Assembly (NCBI RefSeq): GCF_033153115.1
Contig: NW_026889809.1
Location: forward strand, 2,666,001-2,730,000
DNA length: 64,000 nt
Direction of reading: 5' to 3'
Source of the DNA: Saccostrea echinata
Lineage: Eukaryota
Within the stretch, counting starts at the first letter, position 1; the number at the start of each line of letters is the position of its first letter. This document shows, in pieces, positions 3,001-64,000 of the stretch. The notes below the pieces were generated by a model, which saw nothing but the letters and a program-made list of their open reading frames with translations, did not search any database and had not been told where the DNA came from. A program made the translations under genes and the position numbers.

Positions 3001-6000
3001 CTATTACTGGTATTGTGACTGACTAGACCAGTATATCTACATTGTAACTTGCTTGATGTGTACAGTATTGTTACTCGACTGGTATATCTACAGTGTAACT
3101 TGCTTGATGTGTACAGTATTGTTACTCGACTGGTATATCTACAGTGTAACTTGCTTGATGTGTACAGTATTGTTACTCGACTGGTATATCTACAGTGTAA
3201 CTTGCTTGATGTGTACAGTATTGTTACTAGACTTGTATATCTACAGTGTCACTTGTTTGATGTGTAAAGAATTGTTACTAAAATGGTATATCTACAATGT
3301 AACTTGCTTGATTTGTACAGTATTATTTCTAGACTTGAATCAATCTCCTATGCAGAGTTGTTGTTCGTTCTTCTCTCAGACACCTCTGCAATGGGCTCGC
3401 GTCAAGATTTTTGACATAACGTAAAAAACCTAATATTTCAAGGATTATTTCAAATTAAACTAATATCATCATCATCATTTATTTGGTATCATATATCATC
3501 ATACATAAAACAAATACACATAAATATACATAATCATTTGAAAGACAATATTTGGGAATCCATAAATTTTAAATAGATTTATAAATAAATATTCAGGAAA
3601 CCATATTTTAGATAGTGACTAGTTGATACCAGGATAACCCATTAAAGTTGGAGAGCTTATTTCCAATGGGGTCCTACCCTTAATAAGATAAAAATACAAT
3701 GTTTCATCATTAAAGCACTATAACAATTTTTGGCACTATAATCTTATCACTGCGTTGCTTACATGTTAAATTTAATTTAAGTATGACAACATATAGGATC
3801 AATAAAATAATAAAATATGTTTTATAAGTTAATGCTGAAACATATCACTTTCATGTTCTAAAATGCCATTTTGTAAGATAAAACTCTTAACTTGTTTCTT
3901 AAAAGTAATCTTTCCTTTAGTACATTTAATAGAAGCTGGTAAAAAATTCCAGTCCTTAATGCCATTATAGTAAAAAGTATCCGCTTGACATGCTTTCACA
4001 TGAGGAATAAAAAAATCTTCATTAGTGGATGCTCTAGTGTTTCGTGAAGACACAGCTGACCTTAAAGTAAAATTTTCGCTTAGATAGGATGGCGCACAAC
4101 CATGATATATGTTATACACATGGTTTAATCTGAGTTGTCTTACCCGGTCTTCTATATTTAAATAATTTAATGTACTAAGCACTTTGTAGTTTATGGAATG
4201 TAAAGGAGTTAAATTCAGAATAAATCTTACCATTTTGTTTTGGCATACTTGTAATTTCTTTTTCAAACTCTTTGACAAACCTGCATACCATGCACAACAA
4301 GCATAATCTAAATGACATTGTATAAGAGCAGAACATAATAACATTTTACTTCTTATATCCAAAAAACGAGCTTGTCTGTATAAAAAACGCAACCTGTTGT
4401 TGACTTTTTGTACAATGGACTCAACAATAAATTCACCACTCAAAAATTGATCAACAAAAACTCCTAAATATTCAACTTTTTCTATAGAATGTATTGTATG
4501 TCCATTACACTCAATGTGAAAATCTTGGACACTTGAAAGCTTCTTTCTTGATCCATATAAAATACATTCAGTCTTCCCAAGGTGTAGAGATAACTTATTA
4601 TCTACTAGCCAATTTGAACATTGTTTTAAAACAATACTAATAGTTTTAGATCTATTTAGTAAATATCTATCCCTAAGGACTATCATTAGATCAGACATTT
4701 AATTATAATGAATTAAAAGAAATGCACTATTTCTCGTGCTTATCACTGTGATATATGCGAGCCAACGACAGAGGTGAATGTATGAGCCGATGGTAGAGAG
4801 TGGACTTGTATATCTACAGTGTAACTTGTTTGATGTGTAAAGTATTGTTACTAGACTTGTATATCTACAGTGTAACTTTCTTGATGTGTACAGTATTGTT
4901 ACTAGACCAGTATATCTACAGTGTAACTTGTTTGAAGTGTACAGTATTACTACTAGACCAGTATATCTACAGTGTAACTTGTTTGATGTGTACAATGTCA
5001 TTGTCTGCTTACAGAAGAAGACAGGAGACTCTGCGGAGAACACTCTGAGGCTTAAGGATATTATAGAGGTCAGTAGATATCCTTTCTAATATTTTAGGCA
5101 TTGGGTTCCATCTTAGAGATGCTTTTGTATTATGTTAAGTTGTTACTGTGGAGATTGTTGAAAAATGGCTGAAGTACTGCTGTCTCTGCGTAAAGCCTCG
5201 AATCATCAATCAGTTAAACTGGCCAATTTCTTATTGTCTGTAAATATGCAAGATAAATAAGATTTTTAAAAAATAAATAACAAGTTGAAAAAAATTTACT
5301 TGAAAATAAAGTGCTTTACATATTTTCCTCAGATGAGTCTGATTTGGAATAGCTACAATCCAGTCATAGATTTTTGATGTGTTTCATCTTATTTACATGT
5401 AACATGTATATAAAGATGTTGGCAGATTAGAAACTAATTATATATCGTTATTTGACAGGAAGTAGAAAACAGTCCAGAGTACAATAAATTCCTGCCAAGG
5501 ATTGGTGGAGGAAATCAGGTGAGGCTAATTACAGGGTGAACTGGTCTCATGACACAGACACATCATAGTCAATGAAATACTGAGAAATTGTACATATATA
5601 TAAAACTTGTAGATTATTTTTGTCAAAATATTGTGTTTATGGAAACTTCAAAAATTTCCTATGAATACTATGGATAAATAAGTGTATTTTGAAGTTTGAG
5701 ATTTTTGTTTCTTAATATCATTATGAATAGAATATGCACACCCACTGTAGAACCAATAAGTAATTTTTTTTAATTTTTTAATTTTTTTTGCATGAAATCT
5801 TTCGTAGGAGGGGACTTATCCTGATCTGGTATACACGTGTGGTTTTATTTTCTTTCATTATTATAGCTATTTCTTTGAAACGTGTGTGAATAATGATCAC
5901 TGAAGGCTTTGCCAATTATCCATTATTTCTTTGTTTCCCAAGCATGGTTTACTATCCTATAGCACTTTTGGGGGAAACTATGGAACTCATTTGATTTTTT

Positions 6001-39714: not shown

Positions 39715-40797
39715 GGACAATGGGGAAAAGTATTTCCCTGGTAATGACCCAGCTCCCAAACTGGTTATTGACCAGGCCGGCAAGGAAGTGCTGGACGAAC
39801 TCCTCCTTCTGAGTCAAGATGGTAAGCATGGTTGTTGATACAATCAGTTTGGTAAAGTCTTGCTGAGCATCACCTTATTAATGTGTTTCCCAAAGTAGCA
39901 AATTCACATGATGTTTTTTACATTTTAGATCCATTGGACCTTGACTGGATGGAGACCGGAAGTCTCGAGCAGTTCCTTGAGGGCATGGGAGCAGGCCAAA
40001 ACACTCCGACGACGCAAGAGGTCGAAAAAGCCAGCGAGCCAATCATTGTGATAAAAGACACAAATGTAAACCACAGTGTTTTACATGATTTGCTCACACA
40101 ACCAATTACAATTAAACAATCTCCACCGGTTAGAGTGAGTCCTACACCTGTGGTTCAGCAAGAGTTGTCTCATCTTGATTTACTAGATGAAAGTGTTCAT
40201 TTGACTTCACTTCAGTCTGTTGCTGCGAGTTCCAGCAGTGACATGATTGAGGTACCAGCAGAAATCTCATTTGACTCGGGTTACGGAGTTACGAGTCTGA
40301 ACACTTCATCCTCCTCGCAGCATGACTTACTTGATGTTGGAAGTGTTGATAGCCTTATCAGTTCTCCTCTCTCTGCAGAAGAAATAGACAGTTTGTTATC
40401 AGGATCGGAGCCGTCCTCACCGAGTAGCCAGAGTGATGGCAACGACCCGGATTACTCCCCCCAACAAAGCGATGATGAGGATTATAAACCAAAGTCACGG
40501 TCCAGTGGGAAACAGAAGACCAAACAAAGGAGATCTGGGCCATACAGTACTACGGCAGAAAATCGGAAGGACAGGAAACGAGATCAGAACAAAAATGCAG
40601 CAATTCGATACCGCAACAAAAAGAGAGAGGAGGCAGATGTTCTCAAAAAAGAAGAGGAAAAACTTGCAGAGAAAAATAAAGAACTTAATGATAAAGTCAG
40701 TCAGTTGACTCGCGAAATTACATATATGAAAGACTTGATTTCAGAAGTTTGTAAAGCTAAAGGATTGAAAGTAACGTTCAAAAACAAATCTCATTAA
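39617..40797 (+). CDS. ATF4: bZIP transcription factor ATF4/ATF5 family, 357 aa; exons 39617-39821, 39929-40797
   Basis: LDWME motif, degron-like DSGYGVTS, basic region RKRDQNKNAAIRYRNKK plus zipper ending REITYMKDLI; uORF leader. Confidence 0.93.
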
Positions 40798-46625: not shown

Positions 46626-49600
46626 TGACAGTGAAGTAAGAAGAGAAGAGTTCCTCCCCGGCCTTTATCTCCCTGACTGACACCAGAACCACCATTCTCA
46701 AGGTCCTGTACCAAATCAATATAAATATAAAACAGTGTAAACAATATACTGTTTAAACATTATATAACGGTCTGATTCAAACTTACTAAGCAAGAACATG
46801 GTTTGTATTACAAATCAAGTAAAAATTAACCTGATCTTCTTTGTAATAAAATATATCAGGATATAAAGGTACTGTGTATCAGAGGTTAGCTTTATTGTCC
46901 CAGCTCTAATTTTTTTTTTTTTTTACATATATTATACTTAAAGACAGTAACTGGATAGATATCAATTTTACAGACCTCTCTAATGACATATGATCTTCTG
47001 TTATATGTGAGGAGTAGAATACATTGGGGATGAACTGTTTGAGGTGGAAAGGAAAATCCACAGGTACATCATACTCTTGATAGGCCACATTAGAGGGGAA
47101 TTCTACAGAGACAGGGGGGAAGCATATTGAATCTTCTGATTGACTTTTTTTTAAATTTTGTATATTAACATGGATAACAATGATACAGAAAATTAATTCC
47201 ATGCATTTTTTGAAGTATTATTTTGCATATCAATATTCATTTCATAAGCAGTACTGTAAATGTCAGAGCTAAAACTGCTCCATTTCAGTATACAGTAGAA
47301 TACTTTAATAGGGAATACTGATACTGCAAATTCCTGCTTACAATGAAGAAATATTTTTTTTTCATCCAGCACCAGAAATTAATAAATAATTGACTTGATA
47401 TGAAGACTTATGGAATAATGTAGCACTCTCAGCAGTCCCTGATGATTTGCTAAAATAGCATGTGTTGTACTACTGCAGCTTAATTCAACATTATTCCTGG
47501 GTAAATAAAATATAATTTTTCAAGAGGAGCAATACAGTATGAATACCCCCCCCCCCCCCCCCAATCAACTTCTACTTAATATACCTTTGTTATGATTGTT
47601 GACGTATTGGCCTATAGCCAGAGGATTCTGGGGGTAATTGGTCATCCATGACCAGTCACATGTATCAAATGGACCCTGTCTATCTCTTTGAGAACATGAT
47701 CTAGGAAAAGAAAAAAATACATGTGAGATCCTTTAAAGCTTATACTAATTTTATTACTGAATGGAATACACTGGTTGATATAAATTAACTTACTTGAATA
47801 TCATCCTTGAGAGAGACCTGTCATTTCCATCAATCAGCACACCATCAATACAGCGGAATATAAATGTATTTCCTATGCTCTGGAATAAAATCGCTTCATG
47901 TGGATAGTACACTGTTCCTGGAAATAAATGTCACGTGTATGAAAGTTATAGTATTGTAAATCTTAAGAATCGATCCCTACCCATTTCCAGCTAGCTGTTT
48001 GCAGACAAGCCAAATTCTTAGAAAAGAGACAACTGCATGTATGGTTTAAAGGTACATTAATTTATAGTTTTATAAATTTATAGAGTTTAACATCACACAG
48101 ATGAAATGCCAAAGCTCTTTGAATTTCACATATTTTCAATTCATTTCAGACATATAAGCATGCATTTACCATGACCTGGATACATTTTGTACCTGGATAA
48201 AAACACACTATTGTTCCTTGGGGCACAAGTCCACTGGTAACAAATACCCCCATTCCCCCGTGAGGCAAGGTGCTTGGTCCCTTCTCTACTGTGAAGCCAA
48301 ACTGGTCCTTTGTGGCCTGTAGGTTATGGCTGGCTATGTGGGCGGGGTCTCTGTCAGTCAGAGCTCTGTAAGCCCTCTCCAGACACACTCTCTGGCCAGG
48401 GTGATAAAACTGGTGAAATTTACTAAACAGTTTCACTAGAGATCCTTGGACGGCTTCATCTGGTATTAATTTATCACTGTAACCTTTGTCCACTGTTTTT
48501 GCTGACCTAGTAAGTATAAAAATATCCAGACACTTTTTTAAAAATATAATAGAACTCATGTTGCTTATCTACATTAGACATGAGGAACCTTTTTTCCATG
48601 TTATATATTTGACTAGGATCATGCATTTCTGGCAACCTTTAAGGAGGGATTCTTCTCATAAGAACACCTGTTTCTTATATTTAAAAATCAATGAAATTTT
48701 CATAGAATCAAGAAGACAATATCACTAAGTGATGGTATCAGTTCGATTAAATTTGACCGTTTTATATTAGAGGAAAGGTCAGGTCAAGGTCAGAACCTTT
48801 TCCCTGGACATTAAGAATAAAAAATTACTGTTGCCAATCATGCGATGCCAACTTCTATTTCAATAAATTAAATGTTTTTCATTTTGCATGAAGAGATATT
48901 ACCATATAGGGTCTATAAGATGATATTACCAAATTGACATAAATAATTTAACTAAAATGGATATTGGCTAATCCAAATTTTCTCTATTTTTCTTAAAATT
49001 TTAAGACATTTTAGTTATTTTTATATGCTTCTTATATTTAAATTTTTCTTATTTTCACATATGATAAAGTTGTCACATAAAGATACAAAATGATACAAAA
49101 ACAGAAAGTTTTGACCATTTACTAAGAGAGAAAAAACACTTTTTACGGATTTTTGGCTCAAATCTGAACTTAGATTGGAAGCTTTTAAAAGCTAACATAA
49201 TCGTAGTTTGTTTAGAAAATCATATTTATTTGATATATTTTAAAAATTTGTCCCTTATTATAAATTTAACTTACATTTAAACATTTTCTCCAAGTCTTTG
49301 ATTGTGTAAAAATTATAACTAAATTCATTGTTCTATAATTATTTTGAGAGGCAGAAAAGAAGATATTTTCATACGCCGCCATTCCGCCAAAAATATAGTC
49401 ACTGCTAGATTTCAAACTCAGTTTACCATTTCTATTTAAAGTTGTACAATTGTGATGAGGAAAGAAAAATATGATCTTTTAAATCTCTTACATCTAAATA
49501 TATAAAACATATAAGCAAATATATTTTGAATATTTCATCTAGTCAGAAACCAGACAAGAATCCCTCTTTAATACATCCTTATTTTATAATTTATTAACAT

Positions 49601-52198: not shown

Positions 52199-55100
52199 TC
52201 AGCGATTAGAATTCTTTATCGATGGCCGACATTCCGGACACTGTGATTCGTCACTAGTATCGACGAAAAAACCAATGCTGTAGATATGGCCTGTAATGTT
52301 ATATCAGTAAATGAGTCATTTCACAGATGGTTAATTACTAATATATAATGAACAAGAAATTTCATTTGTATTTAGTAAAGTAGAAAGGTTACTTATTGCC
52401 AATGTCTAATAATTTGTTAGTTTACAATGAATTAAAAAAAATAATGTACTTACTATTTGTACATTTGTACCATTTGCCTTGCTTTGTGCACGCCACATTT
52501 TGCAAACTGATCCTTCGTTCATCATCAGAAATCCAGGAACAAGAAGTTGGCTCTTTTCTCCTAAGTTCTTCGAACGCTGACTTGGCCTTTGTAATGTCTT
52601 CAGGTTTAAAGGTACTCCCACCTGGACATCTCAGCTTGGTCATATGACACTCAAGACGTTCTTTGTCACTTTGAGTAATGTTTGTATAGTCATTTTCATC
52701 AAACTCACGTTTCATTAAAATCAAATCTAAATATAACAAGTATCTCTCCACCTCATTTGCAAATTGCCTAAGTTCATAATCTTTAAAAATTATGTCAGCG
52801 TGTTTACCAATCCACTTTACCATTATTAGATATGTTCCTTTTATTTCAGGAGGAAATTCTCTATCTGCTCTTTCAAGCTCATTGAATCTTGGTCCTATTT
52901 TTAATACAAAATATATGAGTAATTTTCTGGCAAAAATATTTTTACTGTTTTTGGGCAACAATTCATCGATATTATCCACAAAGAACGAGACGGGAGTTGT
53001 ATTCTCTTTGAGTGATTGATTGATCCAAAAGCTATTGTGAAACATACTGACCCTCCCTTTTTCAATATCTCTTTTCACTTCTTCAAGGTCTCGAAATATT
53101 TGGTTGTTGATATTTCTGTACCTTTTGCTTCTCTTTATAGGAGTGGAACATTTCGGACACATTTTCAAAGCAACTTGCCTATTCTTGTTAGACTCATCAC
53201 TAGACTCAGACTGCATGTGTCTATCCATAGCGTCCAGATCAAATATGTGCCCACAGTCTACAAGCTCGATAAAAAGTGCTTTATCGTTTCGTTTCGCTTC
53301 AGAGAACATTTCATGTAGTTGATCATTGTTGCATCGTTTGCAGAAGTTTGGGCATATCTCACCACACACGCCGGTGCACCTGTGTCGAGAATTACAACCC
53401 TTTAAAGTCCTCTTGCAACGGTTGTCGCAGCGAGGCCTTTCACAATCTTCAAAGCACTGTTTAGAACACTTGAAAGAGTTTTTGCATTTCCTATCACAAT
53501 CCCAGTTGCACGGCCTCGTGCAAGGTTCACAGATTTCACCGCACAAGCGAGGACATCCCTCTCTATGTTCACATATTCTTTCGCACTTTTTGTTACATGG
53601 TGGACACATGCTCGAACAAAGATGACCAGTATTACAATTATGCCCACATATAAGATCTCGCGAGCATACTTGTTTACATTGGATATGTAATCTTCCATTA
53701 GAACAACTATGACAGGTACCCTTACAAAAATGACCACAAGGAAGCGTTTCCCTACATTCCTTTTGGCAGAAAAAGTTATCCTTTGCAGAACATTTTATCA
53801 CCGATTCATGACCACAGGCTGGATGTGTAACTTGTACCACAACTTGACATGGATATTTATTACAGTTTTGACTACATTTCAATGTGCAAATATGACCGCA
53901 ATCACGTTGTCTTGTGCACTTTGCCGGACAAGGACGATCGCTTAGATCTTCTGAGCAAGGAACACATACTTCATGTTCACAAGTAAGGTACTTCTTTTTT
54001 ACTCTTTCCATGCATGGTCCGCATTCTTTATAACATTCTTTCTGGCACAGATGTCCATCGTCACACCATTTCTTTAAACATGCTTTTTGACATGGGAGGT
54101 CATGAATTGAGTTATCTGCATGACACTTTCTTTCACAGACATGGCCACATTGAAGAAGAGTAGCACAAGGTTCATCACATCCACCGTCTTTGACATTCTC
54201 AAAATCCTCTGGACCTGAAACGCTGGTGATCTTTTGAGGGTGATTTTTACAAACCAGTGATAAGCTTTTCCCGAGCACATCTTTTTCCTTTGCTTTTGTG
54301 ATTATTTTCATCCACAGAGGGTTATTGCGTTTATATAACATCTGAAAATTTCCAAAAGCATAAAATCCTTCCTTAGCTCTTGAAAGCAAAACACAGATTC
54401 TTTGTGGATCTCCAAGATGACCTAATTTACAATCTTCATTGCTACGAACAAGCGATAACAAAATTATTTTATTTTCCTCTCCTTGGAAGTTATCAACAGC
54501 AGTGATATGAACTCTTTGGTTAGAGAGCTCTCTTCCTATCACTAATTGTTGTGAAATTTGAGAAACTCTCGTTCTTATCTTTCTCACTTGATCATTATAG
54601 GCAGATAAAATTGTTATATCGGAGTTTGAATAACCCTGTAATATAAGGTATTTATACAAGTTGGCTATCATTTCAACTTCAAAGTCATTCGTGTAACTTG
54701 TAGAATAGTTTGTTTGGCTTTCTGGATTTTGATGATCAATGAAAAATATGTTATGTTTCATCCCTTTAACATCCTGGTATTCTAGAACAGTCAAATGGTC
54801 TTGAAGAGATGGATAAATTGCAGGGGTCAACATGCATGATATTTCTGGCCTCATCCGATGTTGTTGTGCCAAACATTGAAAAGGAAAACCATTCATGACG
54901 AGTCGCTCCATTAGAGAAACATCTGTGTTATATTGACATCTAAGATCATAGTTGTTCATTGTTGGGCGAAGTTGTTGGTGGTCACCAATCAGAATCAAAT
55001 GCTGCAAATCTTTCGTTAAGCAACCAAGAATGTGCTGCTCGTGAACTTGAGCCGCTTCCTCCACCACCACAATTCGTGGTCGAATCTCTCTCAGAAGTTC

Positions 55101-57722
55101 CATATTTGACGCTGCGCCAGTTGTGGTCATTCCTATCATTTGACAGGAGGTCAGAATAGAAAGATCACGTTTGAAGCGTTCATGGTGATCATCTTGACTT
55201 TTCCTGCTGAAATGAGAAATTAAATTCGTCCTTTGATTTTGAAACTTTATTGATAATTGGTGAATCCAAAACCTATACAGTTTCCAGCGTTCGCGAAGAC
55301 TTAGCCTCCATACATTACGAATGCGGCGCACGTTCTGAACTGGCATAATATCCTGGCAGCGCAGATTTTGTTGAACATAAGACAACATTCTCCTGCGTTT
55401 TTCGTAAGACACTCGGTTCCAAAATACCTGATGAATGTTTCGGAAGATCTGAGGGAAGAAAGTATTAAATATTATTCCGTTTGAATTCACATTGTTTGGA
55501 CACAGATGTTCATCTGCAAAGACAAAAGAAGGACGAATAGCGTGTAGAATTTCTTTCTCAAAATCATCATCGTCATCGCCAAGAATCCTTTTTTGATTTT
55601 CTTGCAAAAATAAGTCATCTATTTCTATTCCATTTTCTCTTTGCGCTTTGGTCACGTGTCCACGGAAATCCGTCGCTACATTTGGTATGCATAGCCAAGA
55701 AATAATAATAGCTTCTTTACATGGGACGAACTTCTCATGAAATCTGAAATTTATTTCCAATGACCAAATATGTTGAGGGGATATAATGTTTTCAGTCTCT
55801 AAAAACCGCGTCGATACGATACCTTTCTGTAAGTAGGAAAGAAACGTATCAATATACTTAACACATTTAGTGGAGTTTTGTACATGCCGCCTGTTTTCAC
55901 TCCAGTATCGTTCTTGTTTTCTGTGTTCTTTCAGCATAAATTTTTGTACTCGTTCATTTGCACATCTACCACCTACTCTCACAAAAGGCCGCTCTTTTCC
56001 TCTAAACAAAAATCGGAGACTAACTGAATCTAGTAATTTTTCAAAAAACTGATCGAGTGCATGGTTGGTGTAACTGAGAAGCAATATAGGTCGACTTTCT
56101 TCAAATTTGCTTTTGTTGTAAAGTAAGAATTCCATTATTCGCAATCCCATCCATGTTTTACCCGTCCCAGGCGGGCCTTGAAGAATACCAATTCTCTTTG
56201 TCAGACATTTTTTGAGCGCCTCATATTGATCTTTGTTGAGACCCATTTCTTCCGATGTTGGCCACTTGTCCACATTGAGCATAGGAACCTTCTCATACGA
56301 GGTTTTTGATGTTTGTTTTCCATATCGCAACAGGCATCCAAAGTCTGCTAGTCTTACGTCAAAATTCTTTTTGCGTGTGTAAAGAGGTTCCAAAACGTCC
56401 TGTTTTAAATAAACCAAATACTTTGCAAACGGTATGTTTTCATTTTTCTCTAGCATTGCAGATGCAAGAGTCTTAAGTGACTTCAATGTGTGATCATAAA
56501 CCATGTAGAATGATTTACTTTCTATCATAACGAGACGGCATTCCTGAACATTTCGCAGATTGTTAATACTTTGGACGTCATCGTTTAGAATTTTAAGCAA
56601 CACTCTTCCATCCGTTAGTTGTTTTAGATCACGATTTGCAATTAATGCGTACACTAAATCAGAACAGTCATCATAGGTCAAACACACAACATTCCCGTAT
56701 TGCAAAAAATTACAACTTTCCCAACGAATCTTCTTGAACATCTTCATGTCAAATTGCACCTCTAGACCAACACCTGATCCGGGGACACATTTGTTGTCAA
56801 GGAGACGTATTCTTTTGTATATCCGGACATTATCGTCTTTAAACCTTCCCTGTGTTTCCTTGGAATTGACATATTCCATATAATTCCGGATACCCCGGCG
56901 CAGTGGCCCGATAAAATCTTCCAAAAATAGACTGAACTGATCAATCAGGTAATGGGCGGGACTTTTGTAAGGCAAATTTAGGTCGCGGGGTAATATCGGG
57001 AGTGATTCGTTCTGGCGTATCATTTGTGCTGATGGTAAAATTGGCCAATTAACTAATTTTCGCAACTCGTCTTTTATTTCATCAGACAGAATAAACGTAG
57101 TGTCACCGTCATCTTTGAGCTTTTCCAGCTTTTCCCTAACGTTCAATATTCTAATAGTCTCCCTTATCTGGTCCTTGACGATAGTGTCATCATTGATACA
57201 TTTTATCTGAGAGAGTAGTCCTAGTATGGTTTTTGTGTACTTTGTTTTGATATCTTCTTGTTTTGTAATTAAAATTACAAGTTTGACCATATTTTCAAGC
57301 CATTCCTCTGAATCGCAACATTTTGATGTCAATTTTTCAGTAACTAGACTCAAAACATCATGTCTGCGGAAAAAGTCCTTTGTTTTTAAAAGTGAACAAA
57401 TGCGGTCTGGTTCACTACCAAGAGCGGCTGTCAGCATGCATACAATATATTTGATGTCATGTCCATCCAATATTGGCACATCAAACATTTTTTCTACATT
57501 TTTCAGTTCAACTGGCAACTTGTCTTCCCCATCCGGTTCGCCACTTGTTTCCATGGAAATCTCGTAACCGATCTCGTCATCACTTCCGTAATCATAGTAA
57601 TTTTGAGCTTGTTCTTCTACGTACTTGGCATACCTTCGAAAATCGAATGGACTTTTCACTCGCCGTCGTTTTGGTTCAAATGGTTTACGATCAAACGATC
57701 GTCTTCTTTTTCGACGTCCCAT
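52199..57722 (-). CDS. ZNFX1: NFX1-type zinc finger-containing protein 1-like UPF1-family SF1 RNA helicase, 1786 aa; exons 57722-52454, 52290-52199
   Basis: GPPGTGKT, YTNHALDQF, VEEAAQ, IGDHQQLRP, QHRM, VDNFQGEE and LSRAK motifs; tandem NF-X1 Cys/His fingers; CGHIF..CPKC; C-terminal RZ-like finger completed by splicing. An acceptor at 57752 argues for the ATG at 57722. Confidence 0.92.
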
Positions 57723-61237: not shown

Positions 61238-63095
61238 TATTTAGCTTTAGTTAGAAAATATTTTTCTCTCTTTAATCTCTTCTTTAAAACAAATATAGTT
61301 ATATTATATCAATACTACTTTGAATTTTATTGGACCAAAAAAAAAAATTTAAAAAAAATAAAATAAAATTTAAAAAAAATAAAATAAAAAGTAAATAAAT
61401 AAAGCACACATATACTATAAATATTCAATGTTTAGGCAAAATGTTTAGGCAAAATATAGTAAAAAATAGAACTTACCGTATTTTGTTCATACAGTAAAGA
61501 AGAATTTTGAAGAATCAAATTATGCTTAGTTGTATGAGGATATATGTATTTAGAAAACCAAAGAGTTCTACGAAATAAAATCGAAACACATTTTTTAAAA
61601 GTCTTACTCAGCAAAGATTGATTTAAAAAATGGGTGCAGTTTATTTAACTCCACTAAACCGTATCGTCAGTAGAAAAGATATTGATTAATGAACTTAGAT
61701 TCATACCTATAAATAAATTATTCATGTGCATTAAATATACCCGTTGACTCTCTATATCCTACACATATCAGAGATAAACCAATTTTTAAAGGTTCAAATG
61801 AACAATTGTTAATCAGCGCAGTTTTTAAAGCAAATAACTTTTCTTTGTCCAAACTTTGTTATATTCTTTTTTTATTCAATAAAGAGAATCCTACTCTACT
61901 GTCTAATTCAGAGCACGGTTTTTAAAAAACAAGCTGGATTGCGCACGTTTATTTCCTTGAATCAAGGAAGTAAAGAAAGTAGAGCAGATACTAGTATGCA
62001 TAATTTTGACTGTGTCTTCAAAACTTGATTTTGAATGTTCAATACTTTCAGGAGCATTTGGAAATCCAAACATACGGTGAGAATTTTTTCTTATAATTAA
62101 TATATGAAAAGGTTCTCTGGCTATATCACGGAAACTTGATATATTTGTTTGTAAAACAGCTGTTTATAGCCAGAACATTTTCTTTAAATGCAACATGAAC
62201 AGACCCCCCCCCCCCCCTTAGAAAGAAACAAAAAATGAAGGAAGTAAATGATATGTTATACTCAATGTATGCAATAAAGGTTCATACTTCGCAGAGGTTG
62301 CAAAATGAAAAAAAAATAGTCGCAGTATTAAGAATGTAATTTGTAATTTTTATTTGATATTTCCGTAATTTTACTTAATTAAAACCTCACATTTTTACAT
62401 TTTTTATATCCATAATGAACTTTCTAATTGCCCAAATCATGACAATTTTGTTAAGGTTTCTCCACAGGAGACAACCAATGTCTACAGTAACCCTGATAAT
62501 AAGGATGTCTACAGTGTGTATATGTATCTATATCATAAATATTATAAATGTATACGAAAAGTCCATATTTATTTTATAATTCAACATCCTGTTCTAATTT
62601 TTTTTTAACAGCATTGATTACAAAGCTGATTAGGCTGTATATCTTAGATTTAGAGTTTGAGAAATCCAACAAAACCGATAACATGTCAAGTGTTTCTTTC
62701 TTCTGAGGAATAGACGTTATATTTCTAACATTATTAAATTGGGGGAAGGGGTATCAATCTCTGAAATAACTCTATAAGGAGTCTACAAATTTTCACTGGA
62801 ATAAAAAACGAGATGTTTTAAACAAATACTGGCTTACTGCCAATAGGGCGATACCCCAAATATATTACATTACCAGTTTGTTTTTCAAATATAAAAATGT
62901 AAAAGATAATACCTTCCTGGTAATCATATGATTCATTTACACTTAATAAGTTAAAAACGCATTGTTTTGTTGCAGAATCCTGAAATATAAGTTAACATCA
63001 TAACCGGGGATTATTATGCACTCCAGTGCAATTTCTCAGAGAGAAAACATGTAACCAAAGTACACATTTAAAGTCTGAATAGAAAGAATATAGAC

Positions 63096-64000
63096 ATGCA
63101 TTCCCAGAAGAGAAAACAGGAACAAGGACATCGCCATACAAAGCGAAGTCGAAATAACCCTCACCCGACAATGAAATGGAATGGTAGTTTACCAACCAGT
63201 CCTAGCTACAAACCGACTAGTCCTAGCTACAGACCAACCAGTCCTAACTACAGTCCAACCAGTCCTAGCTACAGGTCAACTAGTCCTAGCTACAAACCAA
63301 CTAGTCCTAGGTTCAGACCAGCCAGTCCTAGCTACAGTCCAACCAGTCCTAGCTACAGACCAACTAGTCCTAGCTACAGACCGTCGAGCCCTAGCTACAG
63401 ACCAACTAGTCCTAGCTACAGTCCAACCAGTCATAGCTACAGGTCAACTAGTCCTAGCTACAAACCAACTAGTCCTAGGTTCAGACCAACCAGTCCTAGC
63501 TACAGTCCAACCAGTCCTAGCTACAGACCAACTAGTCCTAGCTACAGACCGACGAGCCCTAGCTACAGACCAACTAGTCCTAACTACAGTCCAACCAATC
63601 CTAGGTACAGACCAACTAGTCCTAGCTACAGACCAACTAATCCTTGCTACAAACCGACTAGTCCTAGCTACAGACAGACTAGTCCTAGGTACAGACCAGC
63701 AAACCCTAGATACAGACCAACCAGTCCTTACTACAAACCGACTAATCCTAGCTACAGACCAACTTGTCCTCGCTACAGAGCATTTTACCCAAGCTTCAGA
63801 TCAGACCACAGCCAAACTACTGCTGAGCAGACAAAAAAGTTATTTAGGAGACATGCAAGCCCTGGAAGATTTCCTTACTCCAATTCAAAAAGGAAACAAT
63901 CTATACACAAAGATGACATGATGCAGCGTTTTTATAGAATCCAAGACTTTGAGGGATTTAACGTGAAATATCTTGATGATTTAAAGTTTGTATTGGCATC
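63096..64000 (+). CDS. 3'-partial protein with N-terminal Pol II CTD-like heptad array; candidate second ZNFX1-like paralog
   Basis: In-frame TAA at 63069, ATG at 63096, then open to the window end: [27 protein letters not shown](YxPTSPS)~28..[26 protein letters not shown]; acceptor TTGCAG at 62976. Confidence 0.75.
63207..63794 (+). repeat. 21-bp coding tandem repeat (28 units) encoding Y[R/K/S]PTSPS
   Basis: Unit TACAGACCAACTAGTCCTAGC; units 3-10 and 11-18 form a 168-bp higher-order duplication. Confidence 0.95.

Follow-up and report, generated by a model that had tools for sequence, protein, structure and literature searches.

Background

RPB1's C-terminal domain (CTD), a tandem array of the heptad YSPTSPS (PF05001), is treated in reviews as specific to RNA polymerase II (PMC3335468). 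A functional unit is made up of two successive repeats in which Tyr1, Ser2, and Ser5 are spaced (PMC5940151; PMC3335468), and the yeast CTD has 26 repeats (PMC5940151). A CTD-mimicking region has been reported for Sen1, an SF1 helicase related to the protein studied here (PMC7110113), and influenza polymerase has been reported to bind the Ser5-phosphorylated CTD (PMC4907247).

ZNFX1 proteins are known from humans (PDB 9q9z), Caenorhabditis elegans (ZNFX-1), and Schizosaccharomyces pombe (Hrr1). The human protein, an RNA helicase and two-part E3, is auto-inhibited; it dimerises via its armadillo domain, forms polymers via weak multivalent contacts (10.1101/2025.10.14.682297), and gathers viral RNA into condensate-like aggregates, where the RNA is trapped (10.1101/2025.09.05.674436). 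In worms, ZNFX-1 acts in condensates of the germline and uses its N-terminus to bind a partner (PMC11959080), and OsHV-1 induces a Znfx1 gene in the Pacific oyster, the paralog not being stated (10.64898/2026.05.15.723513).

In the present study, we analysed a window of 64,000 nucleotides (the whole stretch of Saccostrea echinata DNA, contig NW_026889809.1, positions 2,666,001 to 2,730,000). A previous sequence-only reading of this window had pointed to an open reading frame (ORF) at its right edge with 28 CTD-like heptads. We found that the ORF is almost certainly the N-terminus of an oyster ZNFX1 paralog, and we examined how the array may have arisen and what it could do. The literature searched, mostly outside subscription journals and exclusive of supplements, gave no report of heptads in ZNFX1, and a search with the same limits gave no match for CTD-like repeats outside the polymerase or for arginine substitution of Ser2.

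Methods

To assess the reading frame, we scored all six frames with a codon model for which two further exons in the window served as training set. Canonical diheptads were counted by the exact 2-5-9 (Ser2-Ser5-Ser2) pattern. The family sample consisted of 44 ZNFX1 clusters, which were fetched through the helicase core by a route blind to repeats. The phylogenetic tree was built from 48 rows (45 of them different), and the repeat columns were left out.

The whole ORF, when compared with longer proteins, gave 2635 matches, and the best 120 of these 2635 all carried RPB1 Pfam domains. The tail alone (residues 232-301) gave four candidates among proteins of 528-2000 aa, none of them at E 10, and zero matches among 1.84 billion representatives; in the ESM Atlas, neither the tail nor the array gave a usable match. 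These blank results were false negatives: with its 2053 aa, the full-length protein, P0166, exceeds that size range, and its cluster is represented by another sequence. P0166 was reached by a search with the neighbouring paralog A, which led to a second oyster clade and then to the cluster of its S. cucullata member. We discarded a weak pairwise resemblance between the tail and the neighbour's residues 337-359 (E 0.11), as the two positions are not homologous.

Results and discussion

The heptad array and its reading frame

The features of the locus are as follows.

63096..64000, forward strand: N-terminus of ZNFX1-like paralog B, the first 301 codons of the 2053-aa P0166; the gene runs past the window
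63108..63152, forward strand: bipartite NLS-like leader (KRKQ..KRSR), the sole part of the N-terminal tail common to the orthologues
63207..63794, forward strand: heptad array, 28 tandem 21-nt units, Y-(R/K/S)-P-T-S-P-(S/R/N)
63795..63917, forward strand: basic spacer from the array to the folded part, in the best coding frame and weakly alignable to the O. edulis orthologue
63918..64000, forward strand: start of a folded helical N-terminal domain (MMQRF...), as judged from likeness to S. cucullata and predicted helices
63175..63921, forward strand: overlapping +1 frame with a VLATDQL repeat, 248 open codons, 246 aa from the ATG at 63181
52202..57722, reverse strand: paralog A, ZNFX1-like XP_061166134.1, coding 57722-52434 and 52288-52202

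The frame begins at the ATG at 63096 behind a TAA at 63069 and stays open to the window edge (301 aa), as the sequence-only reading had described. Its counts of 28 heptads, three of them perfect, and of Arg or Lys at position 2 in 23 of the 28 were right, as was its placing of the array in an N-terminal position behind an NLS-like leader. The consensus is YRPTSPS, all 28 units are exactly 21 nt long, and SLPTSPS stands directly ahead of the first unit; in P0166, the array occupies residues 38-233. Position 2 is Arg in 18 units, Lys in five, and Ser in five. The earlier statement that Tyr1 and Ser5-Pro6 are largely kept while Ser2 is mostly lost also holds: Tyr1 is present in 26/28 units (Phe in the other two) and Ser5-Pro6 in 21/28, with Tyr1-Tyr8 spacing in 23 of 27 adjacent unit pairs. 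The array holds 29 basic residues, no acidic ones, and 26 Ser-Pro dipeptides, and it matches the Pfam family RNA_pol_Rpb1_R at 28.2 bits against a cut-off of 20.3.

At the nucleotide level, the array contains a recent duplication of an eight-unit (168-nt) block, the copies of which differ at four of 168 nt, and there are 20 distinct sequences among the 28 units. The codons for Ser2, Ser5, and Ser7 are all AGY, and the variants are mostly one base away from the consensus codon; positions 1 and 6 each show a single amino-acid variant. No further copy of the 21-nt unit was found elsewhere in the 64-kb window, which is rich in unrelated minisatellites (37 rows of tandem repeats).

The codon model gave the YRPTSPS frame +10.9 for the leader, +20.5 for the array, and +6.8 for the tail, the best of the six frames in each segment, whereas the VLATDQL frame scored +1.3, -9.7, and -15.1, respectively. 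With a model from half of one exon, the tail score fell to -2.6 and was still the best of six. Non-coding stretches of 204 nt are open in 1.8% of cases. The best Pfam match of the VLATDQL frame had an E value of 0.33, and we judge this frame to be a by-product of the repeat. Short ORFs of 12 aa and 1 aa start from upstream ATGs at 63016-63054 (forward strand), and the out-of-frame ATG at 63181 opens the VLATDQL frame; these ATGs could possibly serve translational control. A candidate splice acceptor ending at 62975, upstream of the ATG and below the splice-site filter, is a guess.

We consider it barely credible that the array is a non-coding repeat, is read in the wrong frame (VLATDQL), or is an assembly artefact. 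Such an explanation could draw on the +1 frame that is open across 248 codons and on the S. cucullata gene model, which begins at MMQRF and has no tail. However, a single open frame links a start shared with the orthologues to a domain that is 87% identical in S. cucullata, the codon score prefers the YRPTSPS frame, the 20 distinct unit sequences speak against read duplication, and the orthologues have tails of 190-318 aa at the same position.

The carrier protein

The public protein P0166 begins with all 301 residues of the ORF, which, together with the codon model, bears out the earlier choice of the YRPTSPS frame over VLATDQL as coding. The ORF had been called hidden; in fact, P0166 already has entries in NCBI, UniRef, and nr, and among the sources listed, none belonged to the read-derived Logan set. 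Pfam assigns to P0166 a ZNFX1 domain at 520-628 (PF25396, 71.7 bits), AAA_11 at 722-1147 (90.4), AAA_12 at 1159-1350 (142.8), and an RZ finger at 1976-2025 (PF20173, 75.7), all above the cut-off. P0166 matches ZNFX1 of PDB 9q9z at E 6e-190 and Sen1 chains at E 6e-22. Its helicase motifs (Walker A, EEAA, III, and VI) are intact. The RZ finger retains the catalytic Cys and His, which were equated with human C1860 and H1881 by motif position and not by full alignment, and a Cys-rich, Miz-like stretch lies at 1716. The region of about 1380-1690, in the place of the NF-X1 stalk, is Cys-rich, with no Pfam zf-NF-X1 match at E 0.01. Pfam found no polymerase domain in P0166; the sequence-only reading, which held that the protein is not RPB1 and that more coding sequence follows, was correct on both points.

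From this evidence, we have hardly any doubt that the ORF encodes the N-terminal end of paralog B of the oyster ZNFX1 pair, which is an SF1 RNA helicase that carries putative NF-X1 zinc fingers and ends in a Miz/RZ ubiquitin-ligase module. The protein shares with the known family the domain order, the helicase motifs, the 1B domain, the Miz-like region, the RZ Cys/His, and, putatively, the zinc-finger stalk. It differs in belonging to a divergent mollusc clade, which was duplicated to A and B in oysters, and in having an NLS-like start and the 28-heptad N-terminal array.

The NLS-like leader is identical to the start of the O. edulis orthologue at 10 of 19 residues. An NLS-like pattern was present in the first 40 aa of 18/22 oyster rows, which are kin and represent one inherited trait rather than independent counts, versus 2/26 others; the leader may direct nuclear import. 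In the AlphaFold model, residues 1-270 are disordered with no structure ahead of 272, and the array has no secondary structure (pLDDT block means of 38-48); helices follow at 272-280 and 290-300, with pLDDT up to 77. The last 27 aa of the ORF are 81% identical to the start of S. cucullata XP_062603583.1. Going by the domain order given in 10.1101/2025.10.14.682297, the domain beginning at MMQRF probably corresponds to ZNFX1's armadillo-type domain.

Paralogs A and B are arranged head-to-head, with start codons 5374 nt apart, and A is 43.5% identical to P0166. In the tree, the oyster paralogs A and B form sister clades, and in S. cucullata their consecutive accessions, with contigs of equal length, suggest that the adjacent pair is conserved there. 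Paralog A has no heptads and lacks the RZ catalytic residues. The RZ Cys/His motif was absent from 9 of 11 clade-A rows (the other two appear to enter an intron and cannot be judged) and present in all six clade-B rows. Loss of the RZ residues in A and their retention in B suggest a putative division of labour within the pair.

Elsewhere in the window, a 731-bp perfect inverted duplication (25156-25886 and 25972-26702, with an 85-bp spacer) lies just upstream of a BUD31 exon and is either a hairpin-forming element or an assembly artefact. A bZIP (ATF4-like) exon is located at 48146-48568 on the reverse strand. The sequence at 3829-4698 (reverse strand) is presumably a LINE-like reverse-transcriptase C-terminal fragment, and we take 39856-40797 (forward strand) to be a SET-like exon.

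History of the array in oysters

The sequence-only reading had suggested looking for array-bearing orthologues in bivalves, and no heptad run is present in the orthologues of paralog B from O. edulis, C. gigas, and C. virginica. At the same place they carry tails of 190-318 aa with 33-59 Arg and Lys residues and almost no common sequence; the S. cucullata gene model, starting at MMQRF, has no tail. As it is missing from the Ostrea and Crassostrea orthologues, the array appears to be young and lineage-restricted, and paralog B in general can do without it. As the orthologue tails are also basic, the heptad repeat may add little. O. edulis has two degenerate units, YNQTSPS-YHQASLN, aligned to array units 23-24, which is consistent either with the growth of a seed in Saccostrea or with the decay of an array in Ostrea. 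The AGY codons and one-base variants are as expected of a minisatellite grown from one unit. We infer that, within the Saccostrea line, a short Tyr/Ser-Pro motif in the fast-evolving disordered N-terminal tail probably grew into a 21-nt minisatellite by amplification in place, in which case the likeness to the CTD is convergent.

Another origin, which would fit any function of the array, is that a fragment of the host's RPB1 CTD was captured and later amplified with a Ser2-to-Arg change. The three perfect heptads and the single base that separates Ser (AGT) from Arg (AGA) at position 2 agree with capture; the degenerate units already at the orthologous place in O. edulis and the uniform codon set, as from a single seed unit, argue against it, and we regard capture as quite improbable.

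Differences from the consensus are synonymous in 25 of 65 cases, which are copies of a few events. When distinct variants were counted, 7/24 were synonymous, which gives no sign of purifying selection (P 0.27-0.47, at the low power of 24 variants), and the synonymous differences that had been offered earlier as an argument for coding are no more than chance. The stop-free array frame is likewise at chance expectation (P 0.31-0.50); two of the seven other tandem arrays checked in the window also have a stop-free frame. We rejected both the synonymous excess and the absence of stops as proof of selection.

These values are what would be expected if the array were a neutral coding minisatellite, a 21-nt unit that expanded in a tolerant disordered tail and is merely carried. 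The restriction of the array to one lineage, the 37 rows of unrelated minisatellites in the window, and the near absence of common sequence among the orthologue tails point in the same direction. The constant 21 nt of all 28 units and the single amino-acid variant at each of positions 1 and 6 do not, and the family survey below also bears on this explanation, which we rate as somewhat unlikely.

Heptad arrays elsewhere in the ZNFX1 family

Tandem Y-x-P-x-S-P-x heptads were found in two of the 44 cluster representatives, a within-family count only: those of the anemone Exaiptasia diaphana and of the ENA record P0143. The Exaiptasia ZNFX1 (XP_020904023.1/XP_020904024.1) has 16 units in P0161 and about 26 in isoform X1, P0171; the array spans residues 663-844, and the isoform models differ by 70 residues within it. 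The P0143 array has seven units (residues 960-1008). Both resemble the oyster array in having a ZNFX1 carrier and tandem heptads, but they are located in the linker that joins domain 1B to the first RecA lobe, have more Ser2, and belong to separate branches. In 45 of the 48 rows this linker is 25-77 aa long, as compared with 192-307 aa for Exaiptasia, P0143, and Littorina. The Littorina saxatilis protein (P0140), a sister of P0143, has a disordered linker insertion of 192 aa with a single heptad-like stretch, which is possibly a seed or a remnant.

A repeat scan of 46 family proteins at periods of 5-59 gave strong repeats only in P0166, Exaiptasia, and P0143, all of period 7, with self-identity of 0.87-0.90 (the next value was 0.53). 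Among further cluster members, 5/115 proteins had runs, and these came from three genes, none of them new. Among other members of the sample, P0163 (Funneliformis geosporum) is ZNFX1-like and listed with Argonaute domains, and P0165 (ENA record) is ZNFX1-like and listed with a PARP catalytic domain; these combinations are either real fusions or gene-model errors.

The tree requires three changes for the arrays, and the AU test rejects their monophyly (p 1.6e-68, for a tree that carries a long-branch warning). The oyster array lies at another site, the N-terminal tail, and is thus independent of the linker arrays; a single ancient gain followed by many losses may be an alternative for the linker arrays of Exaiptasia and P0143. 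That all three strong repeats in 46 ZNFX1 proteins share the same period and the Y-x-P-x-S-P frame counts against neutral expansion, as random expansion does not predict the same motif three times, unless the motif is generally common. The opposite extreme is that ZNFX1 helicase-E3s gained CTD-like arrays at least three times and that these are functional, being marked by CTD kinases and tying an RNA-trapping ligase to transcription sites or to nuclear CTD readers of viral or host origin. The oyster array would then be a natural "Ser5/Ser7-only" CTD. We find this doubtful. As for the RNA-binding reading set out below, Arg occupies position 2 in 4/26 units of Exaiptasia and 0/7 of P0143; these two arrays are far less basic, so that a single mechanism of RNA binding cannot account for all three.

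Comparison with the RPB1 CTD

The oyster array resembles the RPB1 CTD in its period of 7, in Tyr1, Pro3, Thr4, Ser5-Pro6, and Ser7, and in its number of units, which is close to the 26 of yeast (PMC5940151). It differs in being N-terminal, on a helicase, and not conserved across oyster genera. A further difference is Arg or Lys at position 2 in 23/28 units versus 0 of 4457 RPB1 heptads, as counted in 97 named records among the best 120 of the 2635 matches. Canonical Ser2-Ser5-Ser2 diheptads occur at 0/27 pairs in the oyster array, compared with 39/44 in a 45-unit stretch of scallop RPB1, 8/25 in Exaiptasia, and 4/6 in P0143; in the oyster, Ser5 is followed by Ser2 of the next unit at 5/27 junctions. 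Thus, by the yeast definition, the sequence of the array is not that of a functional CTD, although the heptad spacing and Ser5-Pro6 are kept. The mimic in Sen1 is reportedly a single short acidic motif that binds Nrd1, and in this it would differ from the tandem heptad array of the oyster ZNFX1.

It has been proposed, by the sequence-only reading, that the array is a working CTD mimic. In its strict form, a nuclear ZNFX1 marked at Ser5 and Ser7 would join Pol II condensates or capture readers of phosphorylated Ser5, a proposal we consider unlikely; that the captured readers would be the capping enzyme of the host, Pin1, or CTD-binding proteins of viruses, brought in this way to the helicase and E3, seems to us equally doubtful. 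The retention of Tyr1 (26/28) and Ser5-Pro6 (21/28), the five junctions that offer Ser5 and then Ser2, the NLS-like leader conserved across the oyster clade, and the eight and four canonical diheptads in the Exaiptasia and P0143 arrays are in keeping with mimicry. Reported precedents are the mimic region of Sen1 (PMC7110113) and influenza polymerase on the Ser5P-CTD (PMC4907247). Against it stand the absence of canonical diheptads (39 in the scallop RPB1 stretch), the 0/4457 RPB1 heptads with Arg or Lys at position 2, the lack of detectable selection, and the array-less orthologues, and a working mimic is unsupported so far. The antiviral and condensate ideas that accompanied this proposal have fared better and are more plausible given the ZNFX1 carrier.

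A proposed cationic RNA-binding tail on an antiviral helicase-E3

Our leading reading, which we hold tentatively and at slightly less than even confidence, is that the array is a convergent, cationic, phospho-tunable RNA-binding and condensation tail on an antiviral helicase-E3, CTD-like in its physical behaviour rather than in carrying a code. It lies a short way before the presumed dimerisation (armadillo) domain. It would form a multivalent tail of about 200 residues with Tyr at every seventh residue and a net charge of about +29, which may bind RNA and promote the clustering of the armadillo-dimerised enzyme into RNA-trapping assemblies. Proline-directed kinases (CDK7/9 or MAPK) could phosphorylate the 21 Ser5-Pro6 sites and neutralise the charge, and phosphorylation would tune or dissolve the clusters; factors that read Ser5P might bind the array incidentally. 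Every functional step of this reading is inferred. In its favour are the complete domain set, the disorder and composition of the tail, the recurrence of heptads in the family, and the polymers and RNA-trapping aggregates of human ZNFX1; the array-less orthologues with basic tails of their own, the lack of detectable selection, the far less basic linker arrays, and the absence of Logan among the sources of P0166 count against it.

Conclusions

The gene family and the gene model are already known. The best reading of the array is the cationic clustering tail, with neutral expansion as a close rival and true CTD mimicry less likely. If the array is neutral, what remains is a ZNFX1 paralog, already annotated, that carries a striking minisatellite. 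A long heptad array on an innate-immune RNA helicase-E3 in three separate lineages of one family would show that this repeat can be reinvented and reused, and the oyster array, in which Arg replaces Ser2, offers natural test material, with close array-less orthologues as controls.
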